Shown piece by piece: positions 60,476 through 64,000 of a stretch of 64,000 bases of DNA. A program made the position numbers and the translations under genes. Below the pieces are notes generated by a model. The model had not been told where the DNA came from and did not search any database. It saw nothing but the letters and a program-made list of their open reading frames with translations. Within the stretch, counting starts at the first letter, position 1. The number at the start of each line of letters is the position of its first letter. The DNA is taken from assembly GCA_965213685.1 (NCBI GenBank), contig CBDBZY010000064.1:32001-96000 (forward strand), given 5' to 3'. This DNA comes from a bacterium. GTDB taxonomy: Bacteria; UBA8248.

Positions 60476-61737
60476 ATCAGAGAGTCGGTAGACTCTCTAT
60501 GTAGGGATGGCGCCGGTCCGCTCATAGTGTGCGTACATTGGAAAGCCGCCTTAACTCGCGAACTCTCGTGTTCTAAGCCTTTCTGGACACCTAGCTATCT
60601 TATTCCGACGTTTCTCTACCCAATGATACCCCCCAGATAGCTAAAAAGCATCCATAGACTTACTGCCAGGAAACGGGCGAAGTGGTGATTTCTTTTTCTT
60701 TCTGATTCTTCTTCTTCTTCTTCTTCTTCTTCTTCTTCTTCTTAAGAGATTTCTTTCAAACGACTTTTCTCGAAACTGGCAGAAGTAATCACCGTAGTTC
60801 TTTACAGATCAACTATAATCACTACCGCGTATGATCTGCCTTAACGGCATCTTAGCATCTTCTCAAATAAGCAGAAACTAGACGCACTGAACAACATGCC
60901 CATATTTGGAAGCCATTTTCTAATAGCTGTCATGTGACACAAATTGCAAGCACGTGAGGGCTGGCCTCGCGCGCCGCGTGCAATCACACGAAGCCACGCC
61001 CTAGTAAGCTACTCATGATAACGGCCGAGTGGCCTGTGTTTCAGCCGTATCTTATTTCACTGTTGTTTCAGAGTCGGTAAACTGTTCGTGTAGGAATGCC
61101 AATTGCGCGTGTACATACAAAAATGTTCTTTATAACTAGCGGACGCTCGTGTTAGGCTTTTCAAGCCCCTTTGAGCGCTAAGCGGCGTTATGCATCTCTC
61201 TACCAAACGATACGGCGCCCCCAAGAATCAAAGTTGCATCACTGAGCTTCATTTCCGAGTATGATCCCAAGAAACATACTTAGCCTCGCAAACCAGCCAT
61301 ATTTTTCCCGTGCGTGGAGGAAGCCGGGTGTTGGTGCTTAACTTAGAGAATTAAGGACAACCTCCTGTATGGTACTGTAGTACAGAAAAAAATGCATGCA
61401 AACAAGTATGAAAAACATTTTCCAAAAATGTAGAAGGATGTAGGAATGGCAGTGCCAAGAACCACACAAACTAGATATATGGATGGCAGTGTGCACAGGA
61501 CTACACAAGTAACCCCATCCCTACATCTTTTTTTTTGAATAGAACGTGTATCTAAACTTTGTTGTGAGATTACTGGAAAAATCTTTGTGCGGAAAACAAA
61601 GATGAAAAAAAAAGATGTAGGGATGGGGTTACTTGTGTAGTCCTCTGCACACTGCCATCCATATATCTAGTTTGTGTGGTTCTTGGCACTGCCATCCCTA
61701 CATCCTTCTACATTTTTGGAAAATGTTTTTCATACTT
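60476..61737 (-). mobile_element. Hairpin-ended HINE/Helentron-like element, copy E
   Basis: Reverse complement of copy B over its full length; long IR 61403-61737. Confidence 0.9.
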
Positions 61738-61759
61738 AACTAGTAGAATGCTGAGCATT

Positions 61760-62722
61760 GTGGGCGAGCGGGAGCGAGCCAGGTGCAATAAGCAGAAAAT
61801 TATCTTGAATGATAGTTTGACATGGTTTGGAGTGAACATCTTATGAATGTAGCAACATTTGCAAGAGCAGCCAAAGTACAATGTTGGATCACTAGCTGTG
61901 ATGTACAGCTCTTGTGATTGGCCTCAAAGTTAATGCCCAAGAAATTGCCTGCTAAGCTATCAAGTGGTGTGTGAACGCTCACAGCATGTATCCCAACATC
62001 CAAGTCATTTTCTCAGCCTGTTGAAGTGAAGTGGAATCATAGATGTAGTAAACAGCTTCCTATGTACTGTACACCAACTTCGTACTAGTCTACAAGCAAG
62101 TCGCAGTCCCTAGCGTCACACCACCAGTGAGCTAGTCCCTAGCGTGGGCCCTAAGCTACATGTAGCTAGCCCTTGCCGCGTGTAACCGGACGCAGCGAAC
62201 AGTAGCTGCCCTCCGAGCATTGACGAGGTAAGCGGCGACCGTGGGGTAGTCCGAATCGTGAGACGCAATACACTAGCCAAGGCGATACACTAGCCAAGGC
62301 TTGCTTATAACACGTAGCTTAGATATCCTAGCCCTAGCTCTGCCTCGTCACACGGCCAGTAAGCTAGTCCCTAGCGTGCCAGTGGGCCCCAAGCTACATG
62401 TAGCTTTTGCGCGTGTAACGACGCAGCCAACGGTAGTTGCCCTCTCAGCGTTGACGAGCTAAGGGATAGTCCGAATCGTGAGACGCAATACAGTAGCCAA
62501 GGCTTGCTTGTAACACGTAGCTTAGACATCTAAGCACGTAGCGAGGTTCAGCTCTTTCCCCGTCCAAGTAACCGGATGTGATCGAGCTGGCTATACGTTT
62601 GTCCGTAGCGCAGGGGCCCGCGGGGACCAAAAAAGCTTCATCGCCCGATGACATATATATATATATATATAGAAATCCGCTCCAGCAGAACGACTAGATG
62701 GGCTCGCTCCCGCTCGCCCAAA
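61760..62722 (+). mobile_element. HINE-like element with internal tandem repeat
   Basis: Ends TGGGCGAGCGGGAGCGAGCC / GGCTCGCTCCCGCTCGCCCA; about 215-240-bp internal repeat twice at 62115-62530. Confidence 0.7.
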
Positions 62723-62876
62723 TTATTGTAATTCCTCTCTTTCTTATGCAGGTTGAAGAAACAAAACCTAACAACCATAATACCAATGATCAGGAAAGTG
62801 CACATGTTGGTACCTGCCTCTTGAGATGTTGATGATTATCACTGTCTTCCTGTACATTATAAAGCTATAGAATAGA

Positions 62877-64000
62877 ACAAACATGAAAAACATTTTCCAA
62901 AAAATATAGAGGAATGTAGGGATGGCAGTGCCAAAAACCACAGAAACTAGGTGTAGAGATGGCAGTGTACAGGCAAGACAGGTTATTAAAAGACTACACA
63001 AGCAACCTCATCCCTACATTTTTTTTTTTAACTTGAAAATGTTCTGTGAGTTTAGCTATGGGAATTCTGGGAACATCAATGCCATGCGGTAAGAAAAGAA
63101 AAAGATGTAGGGATGGGGTTGCTTGTGTAGTCTTTTTATAACCTGTCTTGCCTGTACACTGCCATCTCTACACCTAGTTTCCGTGGTTTTTAGCACTGCC
63201 ATCCCTACATCCCTATACATCTTTGGAAAATGTTTTTCATACTTGTTTGTGTACATTTTCTTGTACAATAGTACACAAAATGTTCTTGCAAGTTTCATTC
63301 AAAATCCAACAAACATATCAACTTGATCAGAGCAGCCATTGCGACCAGTCAGCGGCGGAGATAAGGGGGTAGAGTGGGCCCTAAACCTCGTCATCAGTCA
63401 CTTACGAAGTTGGGAGGCTGAGCCCCTCTAAAAGGTCCTGAGCTAGCTATAGAGTAGTTTCCTCAGTGTATATGACTTATACCACTTACATTAACGTTCA
63501 TTGTACAGCGAAGTAAGAACGCGCTCTTTTCAGTGACAAAAGATCGAGTAGCCTTCGCTATGTTAAGCCTTCCAGAAATTAATAGGCGTGGCTTGGCGAC
63601 ACCGCCCCTCACGTGCTTACAATTTGCGCCACGTGACAATAACTATTAGAAAATGGTTTCCAAATATGGTAAAGTTGTCTGGGGCTCTAGATTCTGCCCA
63701 TAGTAGAGAAGATACTAACAATTTGTTAGCGCAGATCATACTTCGTTGTTATTACAGTGAATCTGTGAAAGAACTACGGTGATTACTTCAGCCAGTTTCG
63801 AGTAAAGTCGTTTGAAAGAAATCTCGTAAGAAGAAGAATAAGAAAGAAAAACAAAATCATCTTTCGGCCATTATCTGGCAGTAAGTCAAGGAATGCATTT
63901 TAGCTACTTGTGGGGTATCGTTGGGTAGAGAATCGGTTGAATAGGCCATTCGCGTGCCGAGAAAGGCTTAAAACACGAGTGTTCGCGAGTTAAGAAGGCT
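62877..64000 (+). mobile_element. Hairpin-ended HINE/Helentron-like element, copy F (runs off window)
   Basis: Long IR 62877-63248; co-linear with copy C. Confidence 0.9.

Follow-up and report, generated by a model that had tools for sequence, protein, structure and literature searches.

The palindromes of copies E and F in the window (the whole 64,000-nucleotide stretch analysed, C64:32001-96000, part of a 7.97-Mb bin) are the 3′ ends of 1.2-kb dispersed non-autonomous Helitron2-type elements. Each element consists of A^TCAG, a small stem-loop, an asymmetric repeat, a body of ~0.8-0.9 kb, an inner arm, a loop, an outer arm and ACTT(G)^T (Table 1). Our comparison of copies shows that arm changes passed on by transposition reach both arms of the palindrome, whereas resident copies gather changes in one arm only. 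In addition, the loop is present in both orientations.

Differences between the arms

The assembly contains 94 palindromes, 54 of which are oriented and near-complete; two host duplicates (used in the control below) and one old singleton were dropped, leaving 51 copies in five subfamilies (S1-S5). A few Mb of host DNA were sampled, so a 'private' change is one that is private within this sample. Across the 297 within-subfamily pairs, which are non-independent owing to shared ancestry, 548 arm differences are mirrored, 5 are side-specific and 3 are crossed, the last two counts being at the level of repeat mutation. The arms of a second family (family 2, described below) show 1438 mirrored, 6 side-specific and 5 crossed differences in 78 pairs, again non-independent.

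When derived alleles are counted with indels included, 104 are private to one arm and 29 are private to one copy and found in both of its arms; of the others, 9 are shared and present in both arms, 8 are mixed, 6 are shared on one side and 4 on opposite sides. The mixed alleles, mostly CpG-type or recurrent, gave no direction of homogenisation. Based on substitutions, 24 private mirrored changes were observed in the 51 copies where ~0.7 would be expected by coincidence, and one-arm substitutions outnumber mirrored ones in resident copies by about four to one (94 vs 24). No strand bias of the mutations was evident. The private change in the body of each copy tracks its one-arm and mirrored changes summed (rho 0.64, n = 44), and the number of mirrored changes shows no increase with that of one-arm changes (rho 0.09, n = 51). 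A group of 11 copies holds 54 one-arm and 6 mirrored changes and the other 40 copies hold 40 and 18; this split was made on one of the compared variables and is suggestive only.

An earlier note on this DNA had claimed that the two arms are homogenised within each copy and proposed that arms might cluster by copy rather than by side. The arms are not identical: E has 2 mismatches and F has 10-12 (7-8%), and none of the private changes of F is mirrored in both arms. As proposed, there is no side signal; same-side and opposite-side arms are equally distant within each of the five subfamilies (e.g. 0.0237 vs 0.0237) and also between subfamilies, and the distance between arms is 0.006-0.021 within a copy vs 0.024-0.048 between copies. 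Clustering by copy is less clear, since the nearest arm is the own partner for only 28 of 108 arms, is tied for 31 and is the same-side arm of another copy for 49; the own partner is seldom nearest because many copies sit near the consensus. Arms sort by lineage, not by side, and by copy only in part. The subfamilies are ~10% apart and each is internally symmetric.

The strings quoted in that note lie where it had placed them: E carries CCAAGAACC at 61455, with its complement at 61678, and TAGAAGGATG at 61431/61701, while both arms carry CCAAAAACC and TAGAGGGATG in B, AGGAAAGAC in C and AGGCAAGAC in F. Concerning the two variants described as private to E, CCAAGAACC occurs in 1 of the 54 copies, whereas TAGAAGGATG represents the consensus of the subfamily (both arms in four of the six subfamily copies, one arm in a fifth) and it is B that holds a private change. 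The block that B and E lack is absent from both arms, but it is 17 nt long and not ~19 (arms of 125 vs 142 nt) and is missing subfamily-wide.

The outer terminus is one base shorter (ACTT) in five of the six copies of one lineage, with the inner arms intact; among the remaining S3 copies this holds for two of 11 (post hoc Fisher p=0.035). Since this shortened terminus is inherited, the last bases seem to be taken from the outer arm of the donor. Re-synthesis of one arm from the other, as the note had envisaged, is a candidate mechanism, whereas the inherited terminus argues against rebuilding of the entire outer arm at every transposition.

Copies duplicated with their flanks

The control comprised 15 copies in four groups. 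Within a group, the copies have 600 bp of outer flank in common (88-99% alike) and were therefore copied passively. Their 23 pairs contain no mirrored differences, the number of side-shared differences per pair is 8-22 in three of the four groups (ragged ends inflate the figure for one of them), and none of the 15 loops is flipped. Since the duplicates show no mirrored differences, the matching is probably tied to transposition and not to residence or assembly, which agrees with the link between homogenisation and transposition drawn in the earlier note. This control speaks against rapid conversion in place as well as against an artefact affecting the whole assembly.

Loop orientation and the second family

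The loops of the different subfamilies are homologous, and those of S4-S5 run opposite to those of S1-S3, with modest cross-subfamily scores (22-40 flipped vs 12-18 in the same orientation). One of the 18 copies of S3 is clearly flipped (score 108 vs 16). The minority orientation in the subfamilies of family 1 amounts to 1/18, 0/13, 0/6, 0/10 and 0/4 (1/51 overall).

Family 2 is found on C16, C18, C41, C56 and C64 (e.g. C16:360043-360631 and C64:727412-727989). Its architecture is TCA, a stem, a GGTA loop, a related repeat, arms of ~177 bp, loops of 150-440 bp and ends reading ACTTG^T or ACTAG^T. One of its 14 palindromes has an unrelated loop and was dropped; in four of the remaining 13, representing three separate loop lineages, the loop is flipped. 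Flips have therefore occurred independently at least three times in family 2, once within S3 and once between the subfamily groups. Flipped copies lie at C64:543204, 156576 and 727412 and at C41:457481. The 5′ ends of at least one further family are also present, with the stems ACACAGTGC and ACGGAGTGC.

Element ends and classification

After A^TCAG, the 5′ end has an 8-bp stem capped by a GGTA loop and then TGTAGGGATGG; the assembly contains 112 such ends. At the 5′ terminus of E, loose ends of independent sequencing runs break at 60475. The 3′ ends of 44 full copies are ACTTG^T (25), ACTT^T (15), other (2) or uncalled (2). Candidate empty sites were found for 12 of these 44 copies. Five are clean and show insertion at A^T with no target duplication, and the other seven are diverged, ambiguous or no genuine empty sites; the register of the target is ambiguous by one base because the element begins with T. 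A paralogous empty site of copy C shows the same A^T insertion without duplication. A stand-alone miniature inverted-repeat transposable element (MITE) or foldback cut-and-paste element was rejected, as each palindrome forms just one end of a 1.2-kb unit and the target is not duplicated.

A broken autonomous element encoding RepHel is located at C64:107334-116641, ~11 kb beyond the end of the window. Its gene (C64:108-114.5 kb) contains Helitron_like_N, PIF1, DUF6570 and a C-terminal OTU domain; its 5′ end is lost and its 3′ palindrome partly deleted. The gene has body homology upstream and the partial palindrome downstream, and therefore the palindrome is the 3′ end. A RepHel search of metagenome contigs gave two loci (L005 and L006), 69-70% identical to the local RepHel, with long open frames and a homologous arm downstream of them; the search of genome contigs found none. 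The family is presumably mobilised by a RepHel that shares its ends.

The E/F elements match Helitron2/HLE2, e.g. FoHeli of Fusarium oxysporum, by the layout of their ends and by the DUF6570 marker. DUF6570 (PF20209) is found in RepHel with E-values of 7e-11 and 6.5e-10, above the cut-off; it is described as a marker of HLE2, and the elements also match the 'reverse' HLE2 layout (PMC11417382). The asymmetric terminal repeats, TGTAGGGATGG at 60500 and CCATCCCTACA at 61692, ~35 nt from the end, are arranged as in HLE2, and family 2 shares this layout with a subterminal 3′ copy. In HLE2, Rep motif 2 is preceded by F/Y-x-R and has S between G and P (PMC4067079); the local motif reads YWK(K)EYQARGAPHYH, in which the aromatic residue is present, K stands for R and A for S. 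The target is not the usual T^T of HLE2 but A^T, as reported for proto-Helentron. Helentrons in the strict sense have an apurinic/apyrimidinic (AP) endonuclease fused to RepHel; no endonuclease family was found on the three RepHel loci scanned, where the OTU domain closes the reading frame, and the element is therefore not a strict Helentron (PMC4067079). Canonical Helitron1, which has a short subterminal hairpin and no inverted repeats, was also rejected: TC and A^T fit, but the elements do have inverted repeats, and their hairpin is terminal and long. Where Helitron1 ends in CTRR, family 1 has CTTG or ACTT, and some copies of family 2 have CTAG.

Motifs, fold and one-armed relatives

The earlier note had read the repeated motifs of the arms as Rep-binding iterons that allow the end to fold as a branched structure. 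Each arm does hold TGTAGGGATGG in two direct copies and one inverted copy. An exact direct motif is found in 93 of 102 arms and the inverted one in 96 of 102, while two exact direct copies are found in 22 of 102, the middle copy being degenerate in most; family 2 has one direct and one inverted motif and lacks the middle copy. The supposed iterons are the asymmetric terminal repeat of Helitron2, with a putative role in Rep binding. The long stem of E has a folding energy of -160 kcal/mol vs -44 for the separately folded halves of the branched form. The latter is far less stable and was rejected as the ground state; it resembles the short hairpin of the one-armed relatives and not the favoured fold of the E/F end.

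The seemingly one-armed 3′ ends (L005:5560-5670 and L006:6790-6931) are clearly homologous to the inner arm and share its motifs. The two loci are 96.5% alike up to the end of the arm and then diverge, and no second arm was found in the 50 and 300 bp of sequence that remain after it. L005 lacks the 27-nt block that holds the first motif, and the second motif can pair instead. These two short contigs suggest an ancestral end with one arm, in which the direct and inverted motifs would form an ordinary Helitron2 hairpin, and we infer that the giant palindrome arose by fold-back duplication of such an end.

Proposed mechanism and alternative explanations

Template switching during rolling-circle synthesis could account for both arm matching and loop flipping, and we consider the chances of this proposal to be about even. 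RepHel would nick the 5′ end and displace the plus strand, with a host polymerase copying the element at the same time, and the growing strand would often switch template at the 130-180-bp inverted repeat. By folding back on itself it would copy the inner arm into the outer arm, and by jumping onto the displaced strand it would match the arms and invert the loop; reuse of donor sites and of double-stranded circles would spread the matched form. Template switching is reported to produce arm matching together with spacer inversion (PMC8604942) and to maintain the palindrome at the rolling-circle origin of circoviruses (PMC2690592). For Helraiser, the plus strand is used, donors are re-synthesised and double-stranded circles are needed (PMC5876387).

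Several observations weigh against template switching. B and E share one G>A change that is found in the inner arm only. The neighbouring copies at C64:978263 and 978704 belong to different lineages and share a change in their facing outer arms only, which suggests exchange in place or at insertion. The arms of two control groups were already 14-16% apart, a divergence that would in itself prevent conversion, and the control groups with near-identical arms hold few new changes. Repair or recombination on an excised intermediate fits the same data: the peeled-off single strand would fold to a 130-180-bp duplex, the mismatch repair of the host would correct it, and now and then a crossover joining the two arms on the double-stranded circle would flip the loop. 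We regard such repair at transposition as rather unlikely, even though the stem of E has high stability (-160 kcal/mol), it explains the negative control and the mirrored inheritance equally well, and the outer terminus is left heritable (5/6 vs 2/11, post hoc p=0.035), as it requires two separate processes for matching and flipping and flips are frequent in family 2 (4/13). Ordinary gene conversion or crossover between nearby chromosomal inverted repeats, independent of transposition, appears quite improbable. Long inverted repeats that match within a copy are known from Galileo (PMC2775673), the neighbours at C64:978263/978704 share their outer-arm change, and the control is of limited power for near-identical arms. 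However, with about four one-arm changes for each mirrored one (94 vs 24), donors should under this explanation pass side-specific changes on, and no clearly body-defined lineage carries one; the 15 passively duplicated copies contain neither a mirrored change nor a flip.

Parvovirus-like self-priming is also quite unlikely to be the explanation. Here the 3′ end would pair with the inner arm as far as its terminal base and prime second-strand synthesis, and a nick would at times resolve it, with transfer and flipping of the hairpin. Self-priming is consistent with a stem that reaches the terminal base, unlike the 10-12-nt offset of canonical Helitrons (PMC5148889), and with the dependence of Helraiser on double-stranded intermediates, single-stranded donors being not detectably converted (PMC5876387). 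Both loop orientations exist, as self-priming would allow. The terminal hairpin of adeno-associated virus (AAV) occurs in two orientations in about equal numbers, and family 1 does not behave in this way. Obligatory resolution would give such equality of flip and flop, whereas the minority orientation is 1/51 in family 1, for which obligatory terminal resolution was rejected, and 4/13 in family 2; moreover, resolution would be expected to swap the arms instead of matching them, and the short ACTT end is inherited and not reset from the inner arm. It is doubtful, to a similar degree, that this Helitron2 lineage, probably of sponges, is part way from rolling-circle to rolling-hairpin replication with a self-priming 3′ end. 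An artefact of assembly, polishing or library preparation, for which the finding of whole palindromes in one assembly only could speak, is very improbable: 104 one-arm changes survive in near-identical arms, the mirrored variants track independent body lineages, subfamilies ~10% apart are each internally symmetric and the duplicated copies in the same contigs are unaffected.

Comparison with known systems

The elements resemble FoHeli and proto-Helentron in 5′-TCAG, the 5′ stem-loop, the lack of target duplication, the DUF6570-type RepHel and the asymmetric inverted repeat with its 3′ copy ~35-50 nt from the end and in a hairpin (PMC5148889, PMC11417382, PMC4067079); the A^T target is common to proto-Helentron and the present family (PMC4067079). 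In contrast to the short hairpins described for FoHeli and proto-Helentron, the present palindromes are 330-370 bp long (550-800 bp in family 2), pair to the last base and have matched arms and an invertible loop. Like DINE-1/HINE, the elements are non-coding, have subterminal inverted repeats and an internal microsatellite, and reach high copy number (PMC4067079). The 'melting-pot' origin of porcine circovirus likewise belongs to an HUH-Rep rolling-circle system, and its palindrome is maintained by template switching, as is proposed here, although that is a viral origin with a 10-bp stem nicked in the loop and here a transposon end with a 130-180-bp stem is cut at the base (PMC2690592). As proposed here, one mechanism leads to both arm homogenisation and spacer inversion in yeast chromosomal inverted repeats; there the arms are short and the events rare and at replication forks, while here the arms are long and the events apparently tied to transposition (PMC8604942). 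In Galileo, the long terminal inverted repeats of foldback elements are likewise more alike within than between copies (0.2-0.7% vs 2-7%; PMC2775673). Within-copy matching of long inverted repeats and the general mechanisms are already known, as for Galileo (PMC2775673), and the loop present in both orientations is what is new here. No Helitron end that is long, matched and invertible came to light in a literature search that did not extend to Repbase, Dfam, most subscription journals and supplements, where a consensus may exist. The Galileo repeats form both termini of a cut-and-paste element, which differs from the one-ended palindrome of E and F.

In the literature covered, direct mechanistic work bearing on termination and second-strand synthesis of Helitron2 concerns Helraiser (a Helitron1) and the joined ends of FoHeli. 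The arms and loop act as built-in strand markers, by which each copy records whether its end was rewritten, and ends bearing such markers could separate template switching, repair and self-priming. The one-armed relatives suggest a route by which the giant end originated. Ends of this type resemble stand-alone MITEs and will be misannotated.

Source of the DNA

We read the contigs that bear E and F as host DNA, probably of a sponge, inside a bacterial genome record. C64 (1.6 Mb) has a G+C content of 44%, whereas most contigs of the bin are near 65%, and many of the sequencing runs that contain the stretch are labelled as sponge metagenome. The element was not found in 41 related bacterial genomes, where three weak short matches all lie at the microsatellite. 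The reading frames of the window include some that, from their translations, we take to be LINE-like and hAT-like. Twenty contigs of the bin are longer than 4 kb and below 56% G+C, totalling 4.9 Mb; up to ~4.9 of the 8.0 Mb of the bacterial record are thus animal-host-like by G+C, and the listed contamination is 3.7%. The exact 5′-end pattern had no matches in the searched metagenome contigs and genome contigs. The element family is abundant in three other sequencing runs, with contig pieces of at most 136 nt among those listed.

Other copies and features of the window

The features of E and F and further copies in the window are presented in Table 1.

Table 1. Helitron2-type copies and their parts, in window coordinates
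Feature	Position	Strand	Remarks
Copy E, complete non-autonomous Helitron2-type element, 5′-TCAG...ACTT-3′, 1261 bp	60477..61737	+	Ends as in 44 full-length copies; orientation from RepHel loci
E 5′ terminus: TC, then 8-bp stem, GGTA loop	60477..60498	+	Fold; 112 such ends in assembly
E 5′ asymmetric terminal repeat TGTAGGGATGG	60500..60510	+	Inverted partner at 61692, ~35 nt from 3′ end
E inner arm	61402..61536	+	Homologous to single-arm 3′ end of L005/L006; motifs at 61439, 61476, inverted at 61515
E loop (spacer)	61537..61604	+	S4 orientation, opposite to homologous S1-S3 loop
E outer arm	61605..61737	+	Pairs with inner arm to last base of element; 2 mismatches
F outer arm, 3′ end of F	62877..63029	-	10-12 differences from F inner arm
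F loop, subfamily S3, common orientation	63030..63090	-	
F inner arm	63091..63246	-	
F body	63247..64000	-	Runs ~60 bp beyond window to 5′ end with damaged stem-loop
Copy B, subfamily S4 like E	23605..24861	-	Palindrome 23605-23944
Copy C, subfamily S3 like F	24888..26079	-	Palindrome 24888-25253
Further full copy, subfamily S2	19691..20864	+	Palindrome 20509-20864
Copy multiplied together with flanks, control group SD_C	29239..29566	-	Side-specific 6-nt indel in arms kept in 4/4 duplicates

Truncated copies with the outer arm and loop only are found at 10192-10400 of the window, where the loop is seemingly in flipped orientation, and at about ten other loci. At C64:977483-979861 two copies lie tail to tail and are separated by a 70-nt duplicate of the outer arm. 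A repeat family flanked by TTAA has ~40 copies, one of them near 31253-31472 of the window; apparently only one copy is a fold-back, of 390 bp, at C64:106944-107332, where the 5′ end of the RepHel element is broken.

Three tandem intronless genes, named sulfatase-like from their translations, are present at 8090-10084, 20897-22889 and 26662-28509 of the window. They are 91-94% alike and are interleaved with copies of the element, and a fourth fragment lies near C64:117300. Inverted repeats of 745 bp, 99% alike and 2 kb apart, are found at 41333-44859 of the window, adjoined by a reading frame at 45964-47511 which we presume to be hAT-like.

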